Notes under the pieces: generated by a model
Database searches by the model: none
Told to the model about the DNA's origin: nothing
Seen by the model: the letters and a program-made list of their open reading frames with translations, nothing else
Position numbers and translations under genes: made by a program
Source of the DNA: a bacterium
GTDB lineage: Bacteria; Patescibacteriota; Minisyncoccia; UBA6257; GWB1-50-10
Assembly: GCA_021814545.1 (NCBI GenBank)
Contig: JAKAID010000001.1
Span: forward strand, 41,590-105,589
Length of the DNA: 64,000 bases
Direction: 5' to 3'
In this document: positions 422 to 12,094 of the stretch, one piece after another
Layout: every line of letters starts with the position of its first letter
Position numbering within the stretch: the stretch's first letter is position 1

Positions 422-2128
422 ATGGCGAAGGAAGTCGACCTCATTAAGCAAAAACTACCCGTACTTGAGATGGTGCGTTCGTATGTGACGCTCACCCCCG
501 CGGGGAGGAGCTTTAAGGGGTTGTGTCCATTTCACCAGGAGAAGACGCCCTCGTTTATCGTGTCGCCGGACCGTGGAAGCTGGCACTGTTTTGGTTGCGG
601 GGAGGGCGGGGATATTTTCACGTTCGTGATGAAGTATGAGAACATGGAGTTCCCTGAGGCGCTAAGGTTCCTTGCCGAAAAGGCGGGGGTTCAGATACGC
701 GCGCTGAACCCGCAACATCAGCGGGAGTTCGGCGTGCTCTACGACATTAACGAGGCGGCGAAGGATTTCTATGCGGCGGCACTCGCGAAGCACGCACCCG
801 CGGTTGAATATGTGCGCTCGCGCGGGCTTGCCGATGCGACCGTAAAAGAATTCGCGCTTGGGTTCTCGCCGGGCGGCGAGGCGCTCACCCTCCACCTTAT
901 TAAGCAGGGCTTTGATGTGAACGATGCGGTGCGCGCGGGCCTTATTTATAAGACGGCGCGCAATCTCTACCGCGACCGATTTGAGGGGCGCATTATGTTC
1001 CCCATTTTCAACCAGGTGGGGAAGGTAGTCGCGTTCACCGGTCGCATTTTTGCTGCGCCAGGAGTGACGCCTCCGGACGATGCGCCAAAGTATGTGAACA
1101 GCCCCGAAACGCCGGTGTTCAACAAGTCGCGTGTGCTCTACGGATTGCACGCCTCGAAGCTCAACATCGCGCATGAGAAAACGGTCGTGGTCGTGGAGGG
1201 CCAGATGGATTTTTTGATGGCATATCAGAGCGGCGTGAAGAATGCGGTCGCGGTTTCCGGTACCGGATTCACCGAGCACCATTTGGAAAAATTGCGCCGC
1301 GTGGCGGATACGGTCGTTGCGAGTTTTGATAACGACGATGCGGGGCGGAAGGCGATGGAGCGGATGCTCGACATGTTGAACCGCTACGATTTCCATACGA
1401 AGGTCGTGAGCTTCGGGGAGTTCAAAGACCCTGCGGAGGCGCTCCAGCATGACCCTGATTATCTGCGGCGAGTTCTCGCCGAAGCGAAGCCGGCGTTCGC
1501 GTTTTTGTTCGATAAATATTTCAGTGCTGAAAAGGTGCGTTCTGATGTGGCGCTCAAAAAGCGCGTGGTGGTGCACCTCCTCACGCTCCTCAGCCACCTC
1601 AAGAGTCCGGTAGAGCGTGGAGAGTGGCTGCGTGCGCTCTCGGCCGCTTCCGGTGTGTCAGAGGCAGCGCTTCAGGAGCAGCTTGAGGCGCTCGTGGTAC
1701 CGCAGGAGAAAAAAGAGGAGGCGGAGCATGGGCCGGGCCCATTCGAGGAGAGCAGAGTGAGCCGTATCGCGAAACGGCTTCTTTCCGTCGCCTTTACAAA
1801 CGATGAACTTAAAGGTATTATTTTGAGCAATAAAGAATATATGCCTCGCGGGTTCGTGGATATCCTCGAACACCCCGAGGCGGAATCCGCAGGGATGCTC
1901 CAAATGCAATCTACCTATTTATTTGGGACCGCGGATATAAAAGAGGTGCGCGAAGAATGCGCGGAACTTCTCAAGCAACTCCAGCTTGAATATTTCAAGC
2001 GCGCGCAGGAAGGCGCCCGGGGCGAGATAAAAGAAGCGGAGCAGGCGGATGATGAGGAGAAACTTCGTGCGGCGATCGCGAAGTTCCAAGAATTTTCAAA
2101 AAAGATAAACGAACTCAAACTTCAATGA
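422..2128 (+). CDS. dnaG: DNA primase DnaG
   Basis: CHC2 zinc finger [30 protein letters not shown]; Toprim region [11 protein letters not shown] and DNDDAG. Confidence 0.9.
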
Positions 2129-3303
2129 AGAAAAAGAACCAGGCGAAGAAGGCGGCAAAGCCGAAGGCGGGCGCGGCTAACGCAAAGAAAATAAAGAAGG
2201 TACGGAAGCTTATCGAGGTGCCGGAAGAGTACCGCGAGCGGCTTGAGGAGCTTGTGAAGCGCGGTCGCGCGCGCGGTTTTGTGAACGATGCGGAAATTTT
2301 GAACTACTTCCCCGACATCGAGAAGAACCTCTCATTCCTTGAAGAGGTGTATGGCCGTTTGGAACAGGAGGGCATCAAGGTGCACGAAACGACCGCGCTT
2401 ATTAAGACCGTCGATACGGAGCGCGAGGAGGTTTCGGCAAAAGAATTGCAGGACGCTACGCGCATTGAGCACGACCTTCCCGATGCGGTGCAGATGTACC
2501 TGAAAGAAATCGGCAGGACGCCGCTTTTGACTTCAAAGGAAGAGAAGGAGCTTGCGCGCCGCATTGAGGCGGGCGATGAGATAGCACGCCAGAAGCTTAT
2601 CCAGGCGAACCTTCGCCTTGTGGTTTCTATCGCAAAACGGTATGTGAACCGCAGTCCGCACCTTTCCATCCTTGACCTTATTCAGGAGGGGAACATCGGC
2701 CTCTCGCGTGCGGTCGACAAATTCGACTATCGCCGCGGGTTCAAATTTTCGACGTACGCGACCTGGTGGATACGCCAGGCAGTGACCCGTGCGCTCGCGG
2801 ACTATTCGCGCACCATTCGCATTCCGGTCCACATGGTGGAGACGATTACCAAGTACACGCAGACGAAGCGCCGCCTGATGCAGGAGCTTGGGCGTGAACC
2901 ACTGCCCGAGGAGATAGCGACCGAAATGAACCTCGATGTCGAGAAGGTGCATTATATCCAGAAGATATCGCAGGAAGTCATTTCGCTTGAGACACCCATC
3001 GGCGATGATGACGAAGATTCGACGCTTTCCGATTTCATTAAAGACGAGACGAGCATGAGCCCGGACCAGCTCGCGAACGCGGCGCTGCTCCGCGACCAGA
3101 TACGCGAAGTGCTGACGGACCTTACCGAGCGCGAGCGGAAAATTCTCTCGATGCGCTTCGGACTCGAAGACAACATCCCCCACACGCTTGAGGAGGTGGG
3201 TAAGGTGTTTGGCGTTACGCGTGAACGCATCCGCCAGATCGAAGCGAAGGCACTCGATAAGATACGCAACCATAAAGACATCAAAAAGCTCGAGGGGTAT
3301 TAA
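2125..3303 (+). CDS. rpoD: RNA polymerase sigma-70 factor RpoD
   Basis: Region 2 [29 protein letters not shown]; region 4 [22 protein letters not shown]; 4-nt overlap with dnaG stop. Confidence 0.9.
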
Positions 3304-3383: not shown

Positions 3384-3746
3384 ATGCGTTCCCTCTGGGG
3401 CAGATGGGCTGAACTCGAGAGCAGGGCGGTCGCGGCAGAAAAAGAGCAGATGGGGCTTGTTGTCGAGTTCATCGAGAAGCATCGGAAGCAGTTTCCCACC
3501 GTCGTGGTGACATGGGAGATAGAATCGGGCGGCATCAAGGCCGAACCCATGCTCATCCTCGCACGCCTCTCGAAGAATATCGGTTTTACTGACCGCGCAT
3601 TCTTCCGCATCGTGAGGCCGGCTATCGCGAAGGCGCCCGCGCATGCGGTGAAGCTCGACAACCGCGAGGTGCGCGCGCTCATGCGCAACACCGATTTCGT
3701 GTCGGAGGTCGCGAGCCTCCAGGGCAGACTTCCCCTCACCGGATAA
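3384..3746 (+). CDS. hypothetical protein (120 aa)
   Basis: ORF downstream of rpoD followed by a strong terminator. Confidence 0.4.
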   Translation: MRSLWGRWAELESRAVAAEKEQMGLVVEFIEKHRKQFPTVVVTWEIESGGIKAEPMLILARLSKNIGFTDRAFFRIVRPAIAKAPAHAVKLDNREVRALMRNTDFVSEVASLQGRLPLTG

Positions 3747-3762
3747 CCCGTTCGTTCAATAA

Positions 3763-3790
3763 CCGCCGTATACCCCGGCGGTTTTTTTCT
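3763..3790 (+). terminator. rho-independent terminator
   Basis: ccgccgtataccccggcgg followed by T7. Confidence 0.75.
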
Positions 3791-3816
3791 GGAAAAAAGG
3801 CAGCGGGTGCGCTACA

Positions 3817-5601
3817 ATGCACAATACTATGGTTCGCGTGACCACGAACGAAATGCGCGAGAAGTTCCTTGCCTTTTTCAGGTCAAAAGGACATACGATA
3901 ATCCCGTCCGCTTCTCTTATTCCCGAAAATGACCCAACGGTGCTTTTCACGACCGCGGGCATGCACCCCCTGGTTCCGTATCTCCTTGGCGAAACACACC
4001 CGGGCGGCAAGCGCTTGGCGGACGTGCAAAAGTGCATCCGCACGGGCGATATTGACGAGGTGGGAGACGCAACACACCTCACTTTTTTTGAAATGCTTGG
4101 CAACTGGTCGCTCGGCGACTATTTCAAAAAAGAGGCTATCGAGTGGAGCTATGAATTTCTGACCTCGCCCGAGTGGCTGAACCTCGATAAGAACCGCCTC
4201 GCGGTATCGGTGTTCGCAGGCGACAGCGATGCGCCTTTTGATGATGAGGCGTTCGCGATATGGAGGCGGCTTGGTATTCCAGAACCGCGCATCGCAAAAC
4301 TGCCGAAAAAAAATAACTGGTGGGGGCCGGCAGGTGAGACGGGGCCGTGCGGTCCGGACACGGAGATTTTCTATTGGACAGGGGACCCGAATCAGGTGCC
4401 CACGGGCTTTAACGACGACCACCCGCTCTGGGTGGAGATTTGGAACAATGTTTTTATGCAGTACTTCAAGGATAAGGAGGGTAAGTTCACTCCCTTGAAG
4501 CAGAAAAATGTGGATACGGGGATGGGCCTTGAGCGCGTGACGGCGATTTTGAATAACACCGAGGTGTATTCGATTGATGTGTTCCAGCCCATCATTGCAC
4601 TCATCGAGAAGTTGTCAGGAAAGAAGTATGGCGAGAGCGATGAAGTAACGCGGGCGATGCGCATTATTGCCGACCACATTCGCGCGGCGACGTTTATCAT
4701 CGGCGACCCGCGCGGCATCGTGCCCTCAAATGTTGGTCAGGGGTATGTATTGCGCCGGCTCATCCGTCGTGCGGTGCGCTACGGCAAGCAGCTTGGCATT
4801 GCTGACTATTTCGCGGCACGCGTTGCTGAACAGGTTGTTGCGCAGTTCAAGACAGCGTATCCCGAGCTTGTGGCGAACCAGGGAAAAATAACGAGCGAGC
4901 TTGCGAATGAGGAAAAGAAGTTCAGCGTAGCGCTTGAGAAGGGCCTGCGTGAATTTTCAAAGCTGAAACAGATAGATGGCAAGGTTGCATTTGACCTCTA
5001 CCAGTCGTACGGCTTTCCCATCGAGCTCACGGTTGAGCTTGCACGCGAGCACGGCTTTTCGGTTGATATGAAGATGTTCGAAGAGGAGTTCAAAAAGCAT
5101 CAGGAACTCTCGCGCACGGCGTCCGCGGGCACTTTCAAAGGCGGCCTCGCGGATAATTCCGAGGTGGTGGTGAAATATCATACCGCCACACACCTGCTCC
5201 ATGAGGCGCTTCGTGAAGTGCTTGGAACTCATGTAGAACAAAAAGGGAGTAATATCACTGCCGAGCGCATGCGGTTCGATTTTTCGCACCCTGCGAAGCT
5301 CACATCCGACGAGGTAAAACGGGTTGAGGAAAAGGTGAATGAGGTTATCAAGCGCGACCTGCCTGCGCATTTTGAAATGCTTACGGTAGAAGAGGCAAAG
5401 GCGCGGGGCGCTATCGGGCTCTTTGAAGACAAGTACGCAAAACTCGGTAACAAGGTAAAAGTATATTTTATCGGCGACTATTCAAAAGAAATTTGCGGAG
5501 GGCCCCATGTGGGACATACGGGCGCTATTGGCACATTCAAAATTCAAAAAGAGGAGGCGGTTTCCGCAGGTGTGCGCAGGATTCGCGCAGTTATTTCATA
5601 A
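3817..5601 (+). CDS. alaS: alanyl-tRNA synthetase, compact form (594 aa) lacking the long C-terminal domain
   Basis: N-terminal class II catalytic core FLAFFRSKGHTIIPSASLIPENDPTVLFTTAGM; editing-domain HxxxH motif HTATHLLHEAL. Confidence 0.85.
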   Translation: MHNTMVRVTTNEMREKFLAFFRSKGHTIIPSASLIPENDPTVLFTTAGMHPLVPYLLGETHPGGKRLADVQKCIRTGDIDEVGDATHLTFFEMLGNWSLGDYFKKEAIEWSYEFLTSPEWLNLDKNRLAVSVFAGDSDAPFDDEAFAIWRRLGIPEPRIAKLPKKNNWWGPAGETGPCGPDTEIFYWTGDPNQVPTGFNDDHPLWVEIWNNVFMQYFKDKEGKFTPLKQKNVDTGMGLERVTAILNNTEVYSIDVFQPIIALIEKLSGKKYGESDEVTRAMRIIADHIRAATFIIGDPRGIVPSNVGQGYVLRRLIRRAVRYGKQLGIADYFAARVAEQVVAQFKTAYPELVANQGKITSELANEEKKFSVALEKGLREFSKLKQIDGKVAFDLYQSYGFPIELTVELAREHGFSVDMKMFEEEFKKHQELSRTASAGTFKGGLADNSEVVVKYHTATHLLHEALREVLGTHVEQKGSNITAERMRFDFSHPAKLTSDEVKRVEEKVNEVIKRDLPAHFEMLTVEEAKARGAIGLFEDKYAKLGNKVKVYFIGDYSKEICGGPHVGHTGAIGTFKIQKEEAVSAGVRRIRAVIS

Positions 5602-5633: not shown

Positions 5634-7361
5634 ATGGCTGACGAGCGTCGCGATATCGTATATTTTGGCCGTACCAATTTCCGCAATCAGGACCGGCTTT
5701 TTGGTATTCGCCGCCGTGATAGGAGGCAGCACATGTACGTGATAGGGCAGACCGGCACCGGCAAGTCCAACATGATACACAACATGATCATGCAGGACAT
5801 CGCGAACGGCGAGGGGGTATGCCTCGTGGACCCGCACGGCGAGAACGTGGAGGGTATTTTGCAAAAAATCCCCGAGGAGCGTCTGAACGACGTTGTCTAT
5901 TTCAATCCCGCCGATACGGAGTTCAATATCGGTTTCAACGTACTCGAAATTCCCGACCCGAAGTACAAGCACCTTGTCGCTTCGGGCCTTATGGGTATTT
6001 TTACAAAGATTTGGTCGGGGGTGTGGTCGGCGCGCATGGAGTACATCATGAACAATGCGATTTTGGCGCTCCTCGAAACCCCCGGCACCACACTCCTTGG
6101 CATCACCCGCCTTCTTGTCGACAAGGAGTACCGCAGGGAGATAGTGGCGAATATTAAAGACCCGGTCGTGAAGGCATTTTGGGTGAACGAGTACGAGGAG
6201 TGGAAGGAGCAGTTCAGGAATGAGGCTATCGCGCCCATCCAGAACAAGGTGGGCCAGTTCCTTTCGACACCGCTCGTACGCAATATCGTGGGTCAGTCGA
6301 AGAGCACCATTGATATCGCGGAAATCATGAACTCGGGGAAGATATTCCTGGTGAACGTGTCAAAGGGGCGCATTGGTGAAGACAACTCGGCGCTCCTTGG
6401 CGCCATGCTTATCACGAAAATCCAGCTTGCGGCGATGGAGCGCGTGCGCATCCCCGAAGAAGAGCGCATCGATTTCTATCTGTATGTCGACGAGTTCCAG
6501 AATTTTGCCACGGATTCGTTCGCGAATATTCTTTCCGAAGCGCGCAAATACTATTTGAACCTTATTCTCGCGCATCAGTACATTGGCCAGCTTGTGACGG
6601 ACGCCTCGACCAAGGTGCGCGATGCCGTATTCGGCAACGTAGGTACCATGGTAACGTTCCGCGTAGGCGCGACAGACGCCGCATTCTTGGAAAAAGAATT
6701 CGAACCAGAATTTGGCATTCAGGACATGGTGAATTTGCCGAACTATCACATTTATCTGAAGCTCCTCGTGGGTGGCGTGCGCAGCAGACCGTTCTCAGCG
6801 ACGACCCTGCCGCCGCTTGAACTTGCAGCGTCGGGCGATATCGCCGCGCGCGTTATCCAAAATTCCCGAAAGCGCTATGCACTGCCGAGCAGCGTGGTTG
6901 AGGAAGATATACAGAACTGGAGTAGTGCGGGGGCGAAACCAGAGAATGAGGCAGATTGTATGAATTGCGGAAAGCATGTGAAGCTTCCTTTTACGCCATC
7001 GCCTGGGCGGCCGGTATATTGCCCCGATTGTTATGCGAAAGTGAAGTCGGGCGAGATAAAGTCGGCGCGGGTGACCGAGCGTGAACGCAAGGGAGGGGAA
7101 GCCGAATATCTTGGGTCCGAACAGCCCATACAGCGGCCCGAACGTCCGCAGGGTGCACGCCAGGGTCCTGCGCGCCCCGCAAGGAAAGCAACTATCGTCC
7201 GCGAGGGTCATACCGCAAAAGAGGCGGAACGTCCCGCGATAAGTTTGCGCGAATTGAAGCCCGTAGTGCCAAAAGAAGAGAAGCCGCGCACGCAAGGGGC
7301 GCAAAACTTGAGCGAACTTCGAAGGTCGCTTGAAGAGGCGATAGGGAAATTGAAGAAATAA
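5634..7361 (+). CDS. VirD4/TraD/TraG-like type IV coupling-protein family P-loop ATPase with a C-terminal zinc ribbon and basic tail
   Basis: Walker A GQTGTGKSN; Walker B YLYVDEFQNF; C-terminal CMNCGKHV...YCPDCYAK followed by a K/R/E-rich tail. Confidence 0.5.
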   Translation: MADERRDIVYFGRTNFRNQDRLFGIRRRDRRQHMYVIGQTGTGKSNMIHNMIMQDIANGEGVCLVDPHGENVEGILQKIPEERLNDVVYFNPADTEFNIGFNVLEIPDPKYKHLVASGLMGIFTKIWSGVWSARMEYIMNNAILALLETPGTTLLGITRLLVDKEYRREIVANIKDPVVKAFWVNEYEEWKEQFRNEAIAPIQNKVGQFLSTPLVRNIVGQSKSTIDIAEIMNSGKIFLVNVSKGRIGEDNSALLGAMLITKIQLAAMERVRIPEEERIDFYLYVDEFQNFATDSFANILSEARKYYLNLILAHQYIGQLVTDASTKVRDAVFGNVGTMVTFRVGATDAAFLEKEFEPEFGIQDMVNLPNYHIYLKLLVGGVRSRPFSATTLPPLELAASGDIAARVIQNSRKRYALPSSVVEEDIQNWSSAGAKPENEADCMNCGKHVKLPFTPSPGRPVYCPDCYAKVKSGEIKSARVTERERKGGEAEYLGSEQPIQRPERPQGARQGPARPARKATIVREGHTAKEAERPAISLRELKPVVPKEEKPRTQGAQNLSELRRSLEEAIGKLKK

Positions 7362-7363
7362 AA

Positions 7364-7390
7364 AATCCCCCGAGCGGGGGATTTTTTATT
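7364..7390. terminator. bidirectional rho-independent terminator
   Basis: aaaaatcccccgagcgggggattttttatt between the convergent ATPase gene and efp. Confidence 0.75.
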
Positions 7391-7970
7391 AGCTCTTATC
7401 GACGCGCTCGACGTATTCGCCGGTCGTCGTGTTTACTTTGACAACATCTCCTTCGTTGATGAAGAGGGGAACATTCACATTTGCGCCCGACTCAAGCACT
7501 ACTGATTTCGTGCCGCCCTGCGCCGTGTTGCCCTTTATTGCGGGAGGAGCTTCTACAACTTTAAGGTCCATTTTTACGGGAAGTTCGATGTTCACGAACT
7601 TGTCGCCGTACTTGTATGATTTCACTTCCGTGCTCGGTTTCAGGAACTTCGCGGCATCGCCGAGGAGGTCGGTAGTAAGGGAGAAGCGGTTTTTCGGGTT
7701 TCCTTTTTCGTTAAACCAGTACTGGCCTTTGGTTTCATAGATGAATATCACCGGAAGCATATCAATTTCCGCCTCGCGGAAGTCTTCATTCTGGTGCGCG
7801 GCATATTCGAGCACTTTGCCCGTTAAAAGATTCTTAATTTTTAACTGTGCGACCGGCTTCCTCTGCTGCATGCGGATGAAGGCATATTCTTTCACCTCAT
7901 ACGGGTCTGGGTCGTCGTTCTTGGTGAATATGGTACCGATCTTCAATTCGTTATATGCGAGTTGTGCCAT
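7389..7970 (-). CDS. efp: elongation factor P
   Basis: 193 aa; C-terminal KFVNIELPVKMDLKVVEAPP...VPLFINEGDVVKVNTTTGEYVERV characteristic of EF-P. Confidence 0.9.
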   Translation of the reverse strand: MAQLAYNELKIGTIFTKNDDPDPYEVKEYAFIRMQQRKPVAQLKIKNLLTGKVLEYAAHQNEDFREAEIDMLPVIFIYETKGQYWFNEKGNPKNRFSLTTDLLGDAAKFLKPSTEVKSYKYGDKFVNIELPVKMDLKVVEAPPAIKGNTAQGGTKSVVLESGANVNVPLFINEGDVVKVNTTTGEYVERVDKS

Positions 7971-8011: not shown

Positions 8012-9211
8012 ATGCAATATGATTTCCCGTATCCTATGTCAAGGATGGCGATGAGAACAAAGGGGAGGGTATTCGTGGGGATGTCCGGCGGAGTGGATAG
8101 CTCCGTTGCGGCGTTTCTGTTGAGGCGCGCGGGGTATGACGTTACGGGTGTCTTTATCAAGTGCTACAACATCGACGGGTGTGCGGAGCGTGATGCAGAG
8201 GATGCGCGCCGGGTCGCGGGGCAGCTTGAGATTCCTTTCTATGTGTTCGATCTCGAGAAGGAGTATAAAAAGAAAGTGGTGCAATACATGATAGACGGAT
8301 ACAAGGCGGGCATTACGCCGAATCCGGACGTGATGTGCAACAAAGAGATAAAGTTCGGACTGTTTCTGAAACGCGCCTTGTCGCTTGGGGCTGACTATGT
8401 GGCAACGGGGCACTACGTGAAACTTATTAATTCGCTTCGCGCCCCCTCGGAGAGTGTCTCCGGGGCGACGCCCAAGTCTTACTCTCCTCGCGGGCGCGAA
8501 GCTTCTTCCCTTTCTCTCGCGATAGCAGAGGACAAGAATAAAGACCAGTCATACTTTTTGTGGACGCTTACGCAGAACGAGCTGCGGCACTGCCTCTTTC
8601 CGCTCGGAGAACTCACAAAACCGGAGGTGCGCGCCATTGCGAAGAAGGCAGGACTTGTGACCGCAGAAAAGAAAGATTCGCAGGGCATCTGCTTTTTAGG
8701 AATGGTGGATCTCAAAAGTTTTTTAAAAAAATACATCAAGACAAAGAAGGGAGAGGTGCTTTCGACCGAGGGCGAGGGTATCGGCGAGCATGATGGCGCG
8801 CAGTTCTACACGATAGGGCAGAGGCACGGGTTCCGATTAACGGCGCCCGTTAGAAAGGGCGCGCACGAAACGCAGCCGCACTATGTGGTGGGGAAGGACG
8901 TAAGACATAACACCATCACCGTTGCGGAAGGGAGCGCACATAACGCGCTCTTCAGAAAAACGCTTTTGCTCGCGAACGTGAATATCGTCACCCCAGTAAA
9001 GCAAACGGAGAAGGTCTTGGCACGCGTGCGCTATCGGCAGCCACTTTCGCCCGCAACGCTTGCTAAAAAAGGCGCGGGCGCAAAAACGCGCTATGTGCTT
9101 ACGTTTGCGAAGTCCCAAAAGTTCGTTGCGGAGGGGCAATCAGCTGTTTTCTACAAAAAGGGAGGGGGGCTGGTCGGGGGAGGTATTATCGTGTATAATG
9201 GTTTGGCATGA
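8012..9211 (+). CDS. mnmA: tRNA-specific 2-thiouridylase MnmA carrying a 23-codon in-frame insertion of a palindromic repeat (8434-8502)
   Basis: PP-loop VGMSGGVDSSVAA; GHY...NKDQSYFLW region; an extra ~23 aa (SLRAPSESVSGATPKSYSPRGRE) where E. coli MnmA has ~18 aa. Confidence 0.85.
   Translation: MQYDFPYPMSRMAMRTKGRVFVGMSGGVDSSVAAFLLRRAGYDVTGVFIKCYNIDGCAERDAEDARRVAGQLEIPFYVFDLEKEYKKKVVQYMIDGYKAGITPNPDVMCNKEIKFGLFLKRALSLGADYVATGHYVKLINSLRAPSESVSGATPKSYSPRGREASSLSLAIAEDKNKDQSYFLWTLTQNELRHCLFPLGELTKPEVRAIAKKAGLVTAEKKDSQGICFLGMVDLKSFLKKYIKTKKGEVLSTEGEGIGEHDGAQFYTIGQRHGFRLTAPVRKGAHETQPHYVVGKDVRHNTITVAEGSAHNALFRKTLLLANVNIVTPVKQTEKVLARVRYRQPLSPATLAKKGAGAKTRYVLTFAKSQKFVAEGQSAVFYKKGGGLVGGGIIVYNGLA
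8434..8502. repeat. family B palindromic element, copy B1, in frame within mnmA
   Basis: Outer inverted repeat gcttcgcgccc/gggcgcgaagc; inner stem ggagagt/actctcc; 29-nt core gtgtctccggggcgacgcccaagtcttac (8454-8482) identical to 18236-18264; 69 nt = 23 codons. Confidence 0.7.
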
Positions 9212-9768
9212 AAAAGATATTCGGAGTTATTGCCGTAATAGCTTTGTTTTTTGCGGTTTTCCCGTTCGCACGCGCGGAGTCGAAGGTGCCTGTTAAGGCG
9301 TCCGCAACCTCGAGTCAGCCCACGAAGTGGGATATTTTGAATTTGATGCAGCACGGCGCGCTCCAAGCGACCTCGTCCTATGAAGCGACGTTCACCGATG
9401 ATGAAATAAACGAATTTTTGAACCAGGAGCTTGCTCAGCACAAAATGACATGGTTCGTTGACCGTGCGGCGGTACAGTTCCACGCGGATTCGGCGGATAT
9501 CACGCTTCACGTATTGCGCCCCTTTGCGGGAGACTTAGCGGTGAACGTGGTGCCGCAGGTCGCGGATGGTGAGGCAAGCATGGTAATCAATTCATCGTGG
9601 TACGGGTATCTCCCGTGGCCCTCGTCATTCTTCGAGCGCGTAGGCGATTTCATTTTGAAAAAAAAGACGATAGACGATTGGTTTTCGATCGAGAATGGGA
9701 AGTGGGACGCGATAACGCTGAGCGATGGCTCGGTTACCGTGAAAGTAAGTGGAACGGGCGAGAAATAA
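9208..9768 (+). CDS. secreted hypothetical protein (signal peptide)
   Basis: N-terminal MKKIFGVIAVIALFFAVFPFARA; ATGA overlap with the mnmA stop; immediately upstream of comEC. Confidence 0.45.
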   Translation: MKKIFGVIAVIALFFAVFPFARAESKVPVKASATSSQPTKWDILNLMQHGALQATSSYEATFTDDEINEFLNQELAQHKMTWFVDRAAVQFHADSADITLHVLRPFAGDLAVNVVPQVADGEASMVINSSWYGYLPWPSSFFERVGDFILKKKTIDDWFSIENGKWDAITLSDGSVTVKVSGTGEK

Positions 9769-9771
9769 ATA

Positions 9772-11250
9772 GTGTGCGCTGAAATGCTGCCGTACGAATA
9801 CTTCTTCTACGGCGGCATCTTTTTTCTCTCGGGCGTGCTTGCGGCAAGTGCCGGCGTGGCGCCCCTTTTTGTTACCATAGGAACGCTTTTTACGTCTGCC
9901 GTGCTTTTTTTGGCGCACTTTTACGGCGTGCATCCTCGCGCTCGGCTTTTTGCGGCGTTAATCCTGCTCGTGGTGGCGGGCTCTTTTTATTATCGCGCGC
10001 ACGATGTGCGTTTTCGTGCGGAACGGATTCCTTTCGGACAGAAATTAGCGTTTACGGGCACGGTTGCGAGCGACCCCGTCGCGAGCAATGGCGAGCAACA
10101 GATGAAACTTTCCGTGACCTCGCCCTTCCGCGCGAGCATACTTCTCATCGCACGGGGTTACCCGCGGCTTGCGTACGGGGATGCAGTGCGCGGTGTGGGC
10201 GCGGTGCAGTCCGTAGGCACCACGAGTTATGCGCGGTATCTCGAGAAGGAGCTTGTGCGTGGCACGATGCGATATCCGAGTATTGCACCGATTGGAGAGC
10301 GGAGGGGCTCGCGCGTCGTTGCGGCACTTTATGCAATAAAGCATAGAATCATGGCAGCGTTCTCAAATGCGCTCCCGCCCGACGAAGCGGTGTTTTTAAG
10401 CGGGCTTACCATCGGTGCGCGCGGCGCATTTCCCGACGAGCTCAAAGATGCAATGAAACGCTCGGGTACCACGCACCTTGTGGCGCTCTCGGGCTATAAC
10501 ATCACCATTCTTGTTGCGGTCGTCTCGTGCATGCTCCTCTCCTTCCTTTCGCGAAGAGCGGCGTTTTTTGTGACCGTTCCCATTATTATCGCCTTCGTTA
10601 CGATGACGGGAGCCGAGGCCTCAGTGGTCCGTGCGGGCGTGATAGGGGTCCTGGCGCTCCTTGCACGCGAGGTGGGGAGGGCACACGATATGCGCAACGT
10701 TATTCTTGCGGCGGGCATTGTGATGGTGCTCGCGAATCCCAAAGTGCTCGCATTCGATATCGGCTTCCAGCTTTCTTTTCTTGCACTTCTCGGGCTTGTG
10801 TATGTAGGCCCCGCGCTTATGAATCTTTTTCATATCGAGGAAGGAGGCAAGGGGCCCCTCTCATGGAAAGAGGGGCTTATTACCGCGCTTGCGGCGCAGC
10901 TCGCGACTTTGCCGCTTCTTGTCGGGAGCTTCGGTGTATTTTCTCCCGTATCGCTCATTTCGAATATCGCCATTCTCGAATTCATCCCGCCCACGATGGG
11001 GCTTGGGTTTTCCGTCGCGCTCGCTTCGCTCGTGTCAGGGACCGTTTCGCTTTTCCTCGGGCTTCTTGCGCACGTGTTTCTGAGGCTCGAATTGTGGCTC
11101 ATCTACTTTTTTGCTCGCATTAGTTTTCCGCTGCATTTCAAGATGAGCGTGGTGCTTGGTGCCGTGTACTACCTCGCGCTCGGCGTTTTTGTGTGGCGGT
11201 ATACTAAGAACCATGGTGGAAGCGCTCTTCGCACTCGTCACGCGAAATAA
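9772..11250 (+). CDS. comEC: DNA internalization competence protein ComEC/Rec2, membrane competence domain only
   Basis: Multi-TM protein; ComEC motif GTTHLVALSGYNITILVAVV. Confidence 0.75.
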   Translation: MCAEMLPYEYFFYGGIFFLSGVLAASAGVAPLFVTIGTLFTSAVLFLAHFYGVHPRARLFAALILLVVAGSFYYRAHDVRFRAERIPFGQKLAFTGTVASDPVASNGEQQMKLSVTSPFRASILLIARGYPRLAYGDAVRGVGAVQSVGTTSYARYLEKELVRGTMRYPSIAPIGERRGSRVVAALYAIKHRIMAAFSNALPPDEAVFLSGLTIGARGAFPDELKDAMKRSGTTHLVALSGYNITILVAVVSCMLLSFLSRRAAFFVTVPIIIAFVTMTGAEASVVRAGVIGVLALLAREVGRAHDMRNVILAAGIVMVLANPKVLAFDIGFQLSFLALLGLVYVGPALMNLFHIEEGGKGPLSWKEGLITALAAQLATLPLLVGSFGVFSPVSLISNIAILEFIPPTMGLGFSVALASLVSGTVSLFLGLLAHVFLRLELWLIYFFARISFPLHFKMSVVLGAVYYLALGVFVWRYTKNHGGSALRTRHAK

Positions 11251-12094
11251 AAAGACGTTCATCATATTCGCAGGCGCCTTCATGGTGCTCGATGCTATGC
11301 TTTTTGGCTCTATCGCGCGTGCAGCGTACGCGCGCGATTCGCTCACGCTCAATTTTTTGAACGTGGGGCAGGGAGATGCGGAGCTTGTTGGGCTGCCGGG
11401 CGGCGCCACGCTTCTCATCGACGGCGGGCCGGCGCGCGGTAACGTGCTTCACGCGCTCGCGGAAGTGCTTCCCGTGACGCAACGCACTATCGACCTTGTG
11501 GCGCTCACGCATGCGCAAGCGGATCATTTTGCGGGGCTTATCGAGGTGCTTTCGCGGTATCGCGTGGGAGCGTTCCTGTGGACGGGGCGTGCGGGGACGG
11601 GAGTGGCGTATGAGGCGCTTATGCACGCGCTTCAGGAACACCACGTGCTGCTCGTCGTGCTTCGGCGGGGCGACGTTGTACGGAGTGGGAAAGGAATTGT
11701 TCGCGTGGTTTCTCCTGACGCGGCGCTTGCGGCGAGCAGAGACCTTAACGATACTTCACTTGTGCTTCAAGCGGAGTTTGCGAGCACTACCACGCTTTTT
11801 ACGGGCGATATCGGAAAAAGCGCAGAACGGAGTATCGCAAACGCACTTCGGGCGCCTGTCAGTATCTTAAAAGTGCCGCACCACGGCTCGAAGGGTTCGG
11901 TATCTGCGGCATTCACGGACGTGCTGCGGCCCGCGCTTGCGGTAGTTGAGGTGGGGAAGAATTCCTACGGACACCCTTCGCCCGAGGCGCTTGCCGACCT
12001 TGCGCGGGTTGGCGCGCGCGTATTCCGCACAGACGAGGATGGCACCATCACCGTGCGCATCGACGAGGCGGGGCGCGCGCATATTACAAAATAA
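11213..12094 (+). CDS. metallo-beta-lactamase fold protein, ComEC C-terminal domain-like, in +1 frame overlapping comEC 3' end
   Basis: LNVGQGDAELVGLPGGATLLIDGG and THAQADHFAGL MBL motifs; N-terminal TM segment; ORF track frame starts at 11156. Confidence 0.6.
   Translation: MVEALFALVTRNKKTFIIFAGAFMVLDAMLFGSIARAAYARDSLTLNFLNVGQGDAELVGLPGGATLLIDGGPARGNVLHALAEVLPVTQRTIDLVALTHAQADHFAGLIEVLSRYRVGAFLWTGRAGTGVAYEALMHALQEHHVLLVVLRRGDVVRSGKGIVRVVSPDAALAASRDLNDTSLVLQAEFASTTTLFTGDIGKSAERSIANALRAPVSILKVPHHGSKGSVSAAFTDVLRPALAVVEVGKNSYGHPSPEALADLARVGARVFRTDEDGTITVRIDEAGRAHITK

Follow-up and report, generated by a model that had tools for sequence, protein, structure and literature searches.

The 64-kb stretch of contig JAKAID010000001.1 analysed here (referred to throughout as the window) derives from a member of the Patescibacteria, or candidate phyla radiation (CPR), and carries an open reading frame (ORF) between alaS and efp, on the forward strand at 5634..7361, that begins with ATG and translates into 575 amino acids (aa) followed by a stop codon. 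The gene is designated L, for the long member of a pair of paralogous ATPases that resemble the type IV coupling proteins (T4CPs) of conjugation systems. L is a T4CP-fold ATPase in which the nucleotide-binding domain (NBD) and the all-alpha domain (AAD) are present and the transmembrane domain (TMD) is absent. As a core gene of the chromosome, L is inherited vertically and lies outside any conjugative element, and it belongs to a coupling-ATPase pair that is nearly universal in Patescibacteria.

On sequence evidence, the ORF is a real gene. A word-indexed database search gave at least 8,000 homologues of L; the 120 best are 60-78% identical to it across ~100% of its length, and an alignment of 50 L orthologues, to which all statements of invariance below refer, contains ~200 invariant columns, including the P-loop, the DEFQNF box and four cysteines. 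The public annotation (GCA_027349205.1) gives a protein of 542 aa that starts at M34 (position 5733), and leaves out 5634-5732, the 33 conserved N-terminal residues that form a hairpin. Residues 11-33 are conserved or invariant (F11, R17, L22-G24, R27, D29-H33). Because the first 33 residues are conserved across orthologues, the start is placed at 5634 and the public call is too short. The hairpin itself is a conserved beta-hairpin at 5655..5711 (+ strand; aa 8-26), located 5' of the P-loop, with strands predicted at aa 8-16 and 19-26 and with F11, R17, L22, F23 and G24 invariant; it is too small for a HAS-barrel of HerA.

Both nucleotide-binding motifs can be read directly from the sequence. 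Walker A, GQTGTGKSN, lies at 5745..5771 (+ strand; aa 38-46), with G38, G41, G43 and K44 invariant, and Walker B, YLYVDEFQNF, lies at 6477..6506 (+ strand; aa 282-291), with D286, E287, F288, Q289, N290 and F291 invariant. These are the ORF and the motifs named in the original prediction for this locus, and judged by them the T4CP core is catalytically intact.

The core, an NBD with an inserted all-alpha domain, occupies 5715..6929 (+ strand; aa 28-432). Three coupling-protein families of Pfam align with L above their cut-offs: TrwB_AAD_bind with 53.5 bits (cut-off 20.5) over aa 28-350, T4SS-DNA_transf with 26.5 bits (cut-off 20.1) and TraG-D_C with 26 bits (cut-off 22). The HerA-related model DUF87 scores 31.9 bits in an alignment confined to aa 31-107, the P-loop region, and FtsK_SpoIIIE (PF01580) reaches 18.1 bits, below its cut-off of 24, over aa 32-53 only. 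The NCBIfam equivalogs stay far under threshold, with 46 bits against 366 for SXT_TraD, 37 against 250 for conju_CD1115, 28 against 521 for TraD_Ftype and 15.9 against 970 for HerA; TrbC and CedD are likewise far under threshold, and the sole NCBIfam model passed by L is that of a CxxC-x17-CxxC domain. Among the PADLOC models, mad8 scores 45.9 bits at aa 31-374 and the HerA models match weakly. TrwB is the only structure in the PDB matched by the L sequence or by the profile of its orthologues.

The AlphaFold2 (AF2) model of L (predicted local distance difference test score, pLDDT, 70; predicted template modelling score, pTM, 0.63) is laid out as a short hairpin, a RecA-like core with an eight-helix insert, a ribbon, a disordered stretch and a terminal helix. 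The predicted AAD-like insert spans 5946..6338 (+ strand; ~aa 105-235); its helices (aa 109-233, pLDDT 64-92) are placed between core strands 87-90 and 237-241, inside the region aligned by TrwB_AAD_bind. When the model is compared with known folds by Foldseek, the best match is TrwB (E 7e-11, target-normalised TM-score ~0.6), with Cag-beta and DotL next; HerA (target-normalised TM-score 0.46-0.48) and DndH-C rank under the T4CPs. No transmembrane (TM) segment was found in L, in which the peak 19-residue hydropathy is 1.27 against a threshold of 1.6 and Walker A starts as early as aa 38. The original prediction had named L a VirD4/TraD-like coupling ATPase and called for profile searches and structure prediction. 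Both uphold the assignment: the coupling-protein families pass and HerA and FtsK do not, AF2 and Foldseek return a TrwB-type fold with TrwB, Cag-beta and DotL on top, and no firm placement among HerA or defence ATPases emerged from Pfam, NCBIfam, PADLOC or the fold search. An identity of L as HerA, FtsK or VirB4 was rejected, as the matches are at the level of the P-loop and below cut-off (bar the short DUF87 alignment) and the fold favours T4CPs.

The core is followed by a predicted C-terminal zinc ribbon of the treble-clef, CxxC-x17-CxxC type at 6948..7046 (+ strand; aa 439-471), spaced C442-x2-C445-x17-C463-x2-C466. The four cysteines (Cys 442, 445, 463 and 466) are invariant, as are F453, P455, G458, R459 and Y462. 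L passes both the Pfam treble-clef zinc finger PF23477 (43.2 bits, cut-off 27) and NCBIfam TIGR04272 (41 bits, cut-off 36), and the CxxC...CxxC ribbon first noticed by eye is thus a recognised domain. Zinc binding by this domain family has been demonstrated experimentally in small proteins of Methanosarcina mazei (PMC12704099).

The remainder of the protein is a disordered, mixed-charge tail (7047..7358, + strand) that ends in an amphipathic helix (aa 559-574, nt 7308-7355). In the AF2 model, pLDDT falls below 50 at aa 482-557, and aa 559-574 form the predicted helix. The tail (aa 468-575) contains 11% K, 13% R and 15% E and has a net charge of +10; it had been described as long, basic and of low complexity, and of this the net-basic character stands, while the notion of a simply basic tail gives way to one of mixed charge. 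Tail length varies from 33 to 393 aa among L orthologues, with short motifs retained, namely SLSEL and the terminal helix LRxALKEAL. A further motif, DLAxLGIEFE, occurs ~32 residues past the ribbon in 67 of 84 L proteins and is degenerate in the protein of the window. When a hidden Markov model (HMM) of the L ribbon was run over 1,269 ORFs, it matched only L proteins (81) and members of a Cys-rich family of ~575 aa, c1_575, described below (41 of 111, two copies each).

Genomic setting of L

Upstream of L, the window carries dnaG (422-2128), rpoD (2125-3303), a 120-aa ORF (3384-3746) and then, 5' of alaS, a terminator (3761-3783) and a promoter-like site (3790-3818, + strand). The alaS gene (3817-5601, + strand; Pfam) ends 32 bp before L (5634-7361, + strand), with no good terminator inside the gap. 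Because the terminator and promoter-like site precede alaS and only 32 bp lie between the genes, L is probably co-transcribed with alaS, the probable upstream member of an alaS-L operon. On the other side, L converges with efp (7389-7970, - strand; Pfam), with which it shares a bidirectional intrinsic terminator at 7357..7390 composed of a 15-bp stem with flanking A and T runs (AATAAAAAATCCCCCGAGCGGGGGATTTTTTATT). Beyond efp follow mnmA (8012-9211), an ORF with a signal peptide (9208-9768), comEC (9772-11250, + strand; Competence domain, Pfam), a metallo-beta-lactamase (MBL) gene that overlaps comEC (11156-12094, + strand; Pfam) and, from 12141, a class II aminoacyl-tRNA synthetase gene and ndk. 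The terminator, a strong one, stops the L transcript ahead of mnmA and comEC, and with the convergent efp also in between, co-transcription of L and comEC is excluded.

The rest of the window holds an S12-S7-fusA-tuf-S10 ribosomal block, secY, adk, map, secA, mur and ftsW genes, gltX, scpA, ychF, dnaX, dinB, a P-type ATPase gene and metK. Its flanks on the source contig consist of housekeeping genes, one HEPN_RiboL-PSP-domain gene and a few ORFs that match no family. No relaxase, VirB4, pilus or conjugation gene was found among the family-matched genes of the 64-kb window, of 4.4 kb upstream and of 12 kb downstream, and the GC content is flat across the window, at 0.52-0.58. A hidden second T4CP or VirB4 within the window was sought by six-frame tblastn and HMM searches, which found none. 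The setting described in the original prediction is therefore confirmed, both in its flanks (alaS upstream, efp downstream) and its purely housekeeping character without relaxase or VirB4, and in the distance to comEC, which begins ~2.4 kb past the L stop codon.

Four observations concern the neighbours themselves. A typical bacterial AlaRS is longer than the alaS product of the window and has a long C-terminal region that is apparently lacking here: the protein has only 594 aa, comprising the catalytic core and the second additional domain, with nothing matched past aa 589. The signal-peptide ORF at 9208-9768 encodes 186 aa without a family match, its start overlaps the mnmA stop and its end lies 3 nt before comEC; it holds the same position in nine related loci and may be an extracytoplasmic competence component. 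The Competence and metallo-beta-lactamase domains of ComEC are encoded by two overlapping genes (9772-11250 and 11156-12094), not by one fusion. The HEPN_RiboL-PSP gene (L091:556-1233), ~3 kb before the window start, is the sole defence- or toxin-like gene seen near the region.

The coupling-ATPase pair and its distribution

The surroundings of L were compared across 84 related loci, in which ORFs were called and clustered simply; annotation covered the recurrent families and left aside unclustered ORFs of single loci. The ATPase cluster has 124 members in these loci, and in 40 of the 84 a second, shorter paralogue, S (~440-510 aa), is encoded on the same strand as L. The two paralogues are 44% identical to each other, against 71-75% within each type. 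Walker motifs are intact in both, the DEFQNF-containing Walker B among them, and the ribbon is confined to L (80 of 84 proteins), being absent from all 40 S proteins. S comes before L in 24 pairs and after it in 13; 12 pairs are directly adjacent, with gaps of -38 to 129 bp.

A third recurrent component is the c1_575 family, found in 40 of the 84 loci, where tandem arrays contain as many as six copies and frequently separate S from L (for example L016:5173-6975 and L016:6987-8774, or the six copies at L003:945-9681). Identity within an array (38%) equals that between genomes, so these paralogues are ancient. The family is a very large one of Patescibacteria. Its homologues number more than 6,000, every one annotated as hypothetical, and it matches no Pfam or NCBIfam model; its confident AF2 model (pTM 0.83) is a beta-solenoid without a PDB neighbour, and the protein carries two copies of the L-type CxxC-x17-CxxC ribbon. 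S or c1_575 lies within 10 kb of L in 33 of the 43 loci that have at least 8 kb on both flanks, and does so in all four context classes.

Two arrangements recur. The first is a block in which secD-secF, a gene for a sigma-r4/HARE-HTH protein, c22 and c31 precede S, L and efp. The c22 product (465 aa) has an N-terminal TM segment, c31 (177 aa) is also a TM protein; in Paceibacteria, c22 is a gene of its own and is usually found beside S and c31, as in L015, where c22 (6385-7800) and c31 (8018-8551) lie 5' of S. An R-x4-H motif in c31 resembles that of HEPN domains. The second arrangement runs dnaK, L, at least one c1_575 gene, S and dnaJ. This same-strand insertion of the T4CP pair, with or without ~575-aa genes, between dnaK and dnaJ (L061, L065, L068-L075, L081, L083, L084) is an unusual interruption of a chaperone operon, and a 173-aa gene on the opposite strand lies 5' of dnaK in such loci. 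In 17 of 68 loci, L is directly followed by a gene for a surface protein (for example L059:12342-13778 and L042:2203-3669), which combines two lamin-tail domains and a PKD domain with a signal peptide and a C-terminal TM anchor; comEC is nearby in none of the 17. Among the annotated recurrent families of the 84 loci there is no VirB4, VirB6, PrgI or relaxase. The other recurrent neighbours were considered as possible parts of a type IV secretion system (T4SS) and rejected, all being housekeeping genes (ABC transporter, PepA, GDH, Nramp, RsmE, methyltransferase, SecDF, DnaK/DnaJ, CutA and TrmD).

The family is large. In an exhaustive search of representatives, one sequence per 50%-identity cluster, L-related clusters number 23,937 at E <= 1e-3 and 6,627 at E <= 1e-30, and the conserved core extends over aa 4-432. 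At least 588 loci of species-representative genomes match two invariant L peptides. The best 80 of these carry the labels Jorgensen-, Wolfe-, Lipton-, Nomura- and Kaiserbacteria, Paceibacterota and Minisyncoccia, besides 'uncultured Candidatus Saccharibacteria', 'bacterium' and one Nanoarchaeota. Relatives of L are found on 3 of 2.9 million viral contigs, matches in phage genomes are weak (29% identity or less), and relatives on plasmids reach 39% identity. The closest relative outside the CPR is a stand-alone, T4CP-like gene of 395 aa on a Sulfitobacter plasmid (NZ_CP081110.1, L089; 9001-10188; 39% identity). This copy has no N-terminal domain and adjoins transposases, and its plasmid is typed as non-mobilizable, as are 477 of the 642 plasmids matched. 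The core-gene synteny of L is conserved across genera. The housekeeping context, the lack of conjugation genes and the count of 3 in 2.9 million viral contigs all agree with the earlier proposal that L does not belong to a conjugative element.

The gene set to which L belongs is already in the literature. The parts of Quinonero-Coronel et al. 2025 (PMC12102498) considered here report 5,713 homologues of VirD4-type T4CPs in 2,918 of 3,035 Patescibacteria genomes, about two per genome, of which only 148 lie near virB4; virB4 itself occurs in 2,417 genomes, and relaxases in only 103. The T4CP-like ATPases are thus present in ~96% of the genomes, mostly away from a T4SS and without relaxases, and according to the authors an exaptation of the T4CP cannot be ruled out. 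On these passages, L almost certainly falls within their set of T4CP homologues far from virB4, and the ~2 copies per genome match the pair of L and S.

Possible origins and roles

Some family members reach 900-1,100 aa through an N-terminal extension of ~400 aa, to which c22 is homologous over its full length (E down to 5e-49), and this fused c22-ATPase architecture still exists in many CPR lineages. L-like cores are found in 55 of the 61 extended proteins, a sample retrieved with an L query and biased towards L-like sequences. A separate c22 lies close to L in 10 of the 57 relatives whose upstream flank is long enough, and none is encoded in the window. Beyond the CPR, an 812-aa plasmid T4CP of the actinobacterium Embleya sp. 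(WP_331738717.1) has a C-terminal part that is 34% identical to L and 28% identical to S. Its gene is flanked on one side by PrgI-family and VirB4-like ATP-binding genes and on the other by a replication-relaxation gene and a gene for an NlpC/P60 hydrolase, in what looks like a monoderm conjugation cluster. A profile built from c22 and the fusions aligns with the Embleya T4CP over 714 columns, including the N-terminal domain.

The simplest reading of these relationships would be descent from a monoderm T4CP in which a c22-type membrane N-domain preceded the ATPase. CPR lineages would have duplicated this ancestral T4CP, and Paceibacteria would have split the N-domain off as c22; in L, the core would have stayed more conservative, the anchor would have been lost and the ribbon gained. 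With moderate confidence, we favor the view that L is the detached motor half of such a split, monoderm-type T4CP, forming a ring, recruited by c22 or S and docking cargo or adaptors through its tail. By analogy with TrwB, L would assemble as an ATP-driven ring, which c22 and/or S may recruit to the membrane in trans, in the way that TraI recruits TraJ in pIP501. Cargo or adaptors could then dock on the ribbon and tail, much as on the C-terminal tails of TraD and DotL. Candidate cargoes are nucleic acid, DNA being a possible substrate, or the ribbon-sharing ~575-aa zinc-ribbon/beta-solenoid proteins. Homology would point to the relaxase-less VirB4-type T4SS as the exit channel in those Patescibacteria that have one, or there would be no channel.

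Several points weigh against the split-T4CP reading. The HMM of c22 alone finds no match in the N-terminal domain of the Embleya T4CP, and the hhalign E-value against that protein is dominated by its ATPase part. Contact of L with c22 or S is deduced solely from gene fusion and linkage. The 84 loci are the most similar ones and phylogenetically non-independent. In the 64-kb window, six-frame tblastn and HMM searches found no S, c22, c31 or ~575-aa family, and the sub-clade of the window (12 loci, with efp and comEC) has none of the four within 10 kb of L; that they are encoded elsewhere in this genome is assumed. The AF2 model of L is of only moderate quality. The published passages (PMC12102498) also describe the Southlakia T4CP as non-essential and the T4SS as essential. 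The link to a T4SS is accordingly weak, because genomes with a T4CP (2,918) outnumber those with VirB4 (2,417), the two genes are rarely adjacent and the Southlakia T4CP is non-essential.

A bolder version would have L, S, c22 and c31 form a VirB4-independent translocation machine, descended from a conjugative coupling protein and present throughout Patescibacteria, with the ~575-aa proteins as its dedicated clients, or would make this machine the missing inner-membrane motor of DNA import in the CPR; we regard it as speculative and rather doubtful.

A distinct proposal is that L is a DNA-uptake motor that pulls single-stranded DNA through ComEC, in a role like that of ComFA, with the basic ribbon tail gripping the DNA. 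T4CP cores, as in TrwB, are DNA-dependent ATPases, a property that counts in its favor, as does the net charge of +10 in the tail. Gene order points the same way in part of the family: in 26 of the 84 loci, L is followed on its own strand by comEC and the MBL gene, in several of these with only trmD between comEC and L, and in another clade L is followed by the lamin-tail/PKD surface protein, whose own link to DNA is an inference. CPR genomes conserve ComEC, DprA and ComFC (PMC10633639; PMC6744442), a com set in which ComFA is not named (PMC10633639). In Southlakia, deletion of comEC abolished transformation and left growth intact, and transposon sequencing found the com genes and the T4CP to be alike dispensable.

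This synteny is limited to one clade, however. Once available flank and duplicate loci are corrected for, 20 of 54 loci have comEC no more than 8 kb downstream, every one of them in a single set of context classes, against 0 of 37 loci of the lamin-tail-protein and dnaK classes. The genes between L and comEC are housekeeping genes (efp, mnmA, trmD), so their proximity looks like inherited gene order, and in the window the terminator and the convergent efp part the two. Among the recurrent neighbours of L in the 84 loci there is no dprA, comFC, comEA or pilus gene, and the partner to which the ATPase core is fused is c22, not ComEC. ComFA of Firmicutes, an ATPase that has four cysteines in its zinc site and acts near ComEC, might be analogous in function, but it is a DEAD-box helicase outside the FtsK/HerA/T4CP superfamily, whereas L has a T4CP fold and no operon link to comEC. 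Published data neither support nor exclude a ComEC-coupled role of L. On the evidence of the gene neighborhoods, the associations of L with S, c22 and c1_575 appear better supported than that with comEC. We consider the uptake motor unlikely, and the link between L, comEC and DNA uptake that had been suggested from their closeness is not sustained.

It is also improbable, in our judgement, that L is a free cytoplasmic translocase or remodeller of nucleic acids, a housekeeping motor of FtsK/HerA type serving segregation, repair or RNA, with no membrane partner or channel. Such a motor would suit the solubility and extreme conservation of L and its place in core operons (alaS-L-efp here; dnaK-L-...-S-dnaJ elsewhere), its zinc ribbon and charged tail, which are of the kind seen in nucleic-acid binders, and the wider spread of T4CP-like genes compared with VirB4. 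It is at odds with the fusion of the same core to a membrane domain in many CPR lineages, with the closest relatives outside the CPR being conjugative T4CPs, and with FtsK and HerA profile matches that are confined to the P-loop and below cut-off; nor does any nuclease or recombinase partner such as NurA recur in the 84 loci.

An anti-phage defence ATPase of HerA or MADS type is very improbable. The mad8 match, the weak HerA and DUF87 matches and the presence of HerA and DndH-C lower in the fold list are what recommend it. Against this, DUF87 covers aa 31-107 only, the NCBIfam HerA score is a small fraction of its cut-off and no HAS-barrel is present; neither the window nor the 84 loci contain a Sir2, NurA, methyltransferase or nuclease partner; and defence islands do not share the universal conservation and vertical inheritance of L. 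A MADS or PADLOC defence system was accordingly rejected, as the mad8 and HerA matches come without partner genes and the neighbours are housekeeping. The remaining idea, that L was left behind by an integrated conjugative or mobilisable element or is carried on one, draws on its homology to conjugative T4CPs and on plasmid relatives at up to 39% identity, such as the Sulfitobacter copy beside transposases, and is effectively refuted by the flat composition, the absence from the locus of any integrase, relaxase, VirB4, repeat boundary or compositional break, the core-gene synteny conserved across genera, strong purifying selection and the near-absence of viral copies.

Relation to known systems

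Much of the diversity of bacteria belongs to the Patescibacteria, which are epibionts with minimal genomes; genes kept universally in them under strong constraint are likely to be central to their lifestyle. The orphan T4CPs of Patescibacteria were published in 2025, and L is a variant of these, not a new system. The word 'zinc' is absent from the main text of that paper (PMC12102498), and the passages of it covered here describe no L and S paralogues, no split or fused c22 and no ~575-aa family. What is added by the present analysis is the distinction of two ancient paralogues, the anchor-less form with a ribbon, the fusion of c22 elsewhere and a family with a novel fold that shares the ribbon. 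A vague remark on an exapted T4CP can in this way be turned into testable hypotheses on partners, localisation and cargo, in a group of which the Saccharibacteria are now genetically tractable. If the cargo were DNA or host-directed proteins, L would bear on nucleotide acquisition or host manipulation by Patescibacteria.

Structurally, L is closest to TrwB of R388 (PDB 1E9R/1E9S), Cag-beta and DotL, with which it shares a P-loop NBD with an inserted AAD and intact Walker A and B motifs. It differs from T4CPs of the VirD4/TrwB type in several respects: the N-terminal TM domain is missing, neither a relaxase nor VirB4 is linked to the gene, the C-terminus consists of a zinc ribbon and a charged, disordered tail, and L is a chromosomal core gene, not a gene of a plasmid or an integrative and conjugative element, that scores under every TraD/VirD4 equivalog cut-off. 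Compared with HerA, L has only a two-strand hairpin before its P-loop in place of a HAS-barrel, and no NurA or defence partner genes.

Two further kinds of T4CP bear on the proposed history of L. The Embleya protein, an MPF-FATA (mating-pair formation, FATA type) T4CP, is 34% identical to L over ~80% of the length of L, and its order of N-terminal TM domain and ATPase is that of the c22-ATPase fusions of the CPR; L of the window differs in having no N-terminal domain and no PrgI, VirB4-like or relaxase neighbours. T4CPs without a TMD that work with a separate membrane protein form a recognised class, exemplified by TraJ/TraI of pIP501 (class iii; PMC7431656). L resembles TraJ in being a soluble ATPase for which a separate anchor can be named, the candidate being c22, which is fused to the ATPase elsewhere. 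The differences lie in the setting, as TraJ and TraI are encoded in a conjugative T4SS operon with a relaxase and the candidate partner of L is absent from the window, and in the additions on the side of L, namely a second ATPase paralogue and a zinc-ribbon tail.

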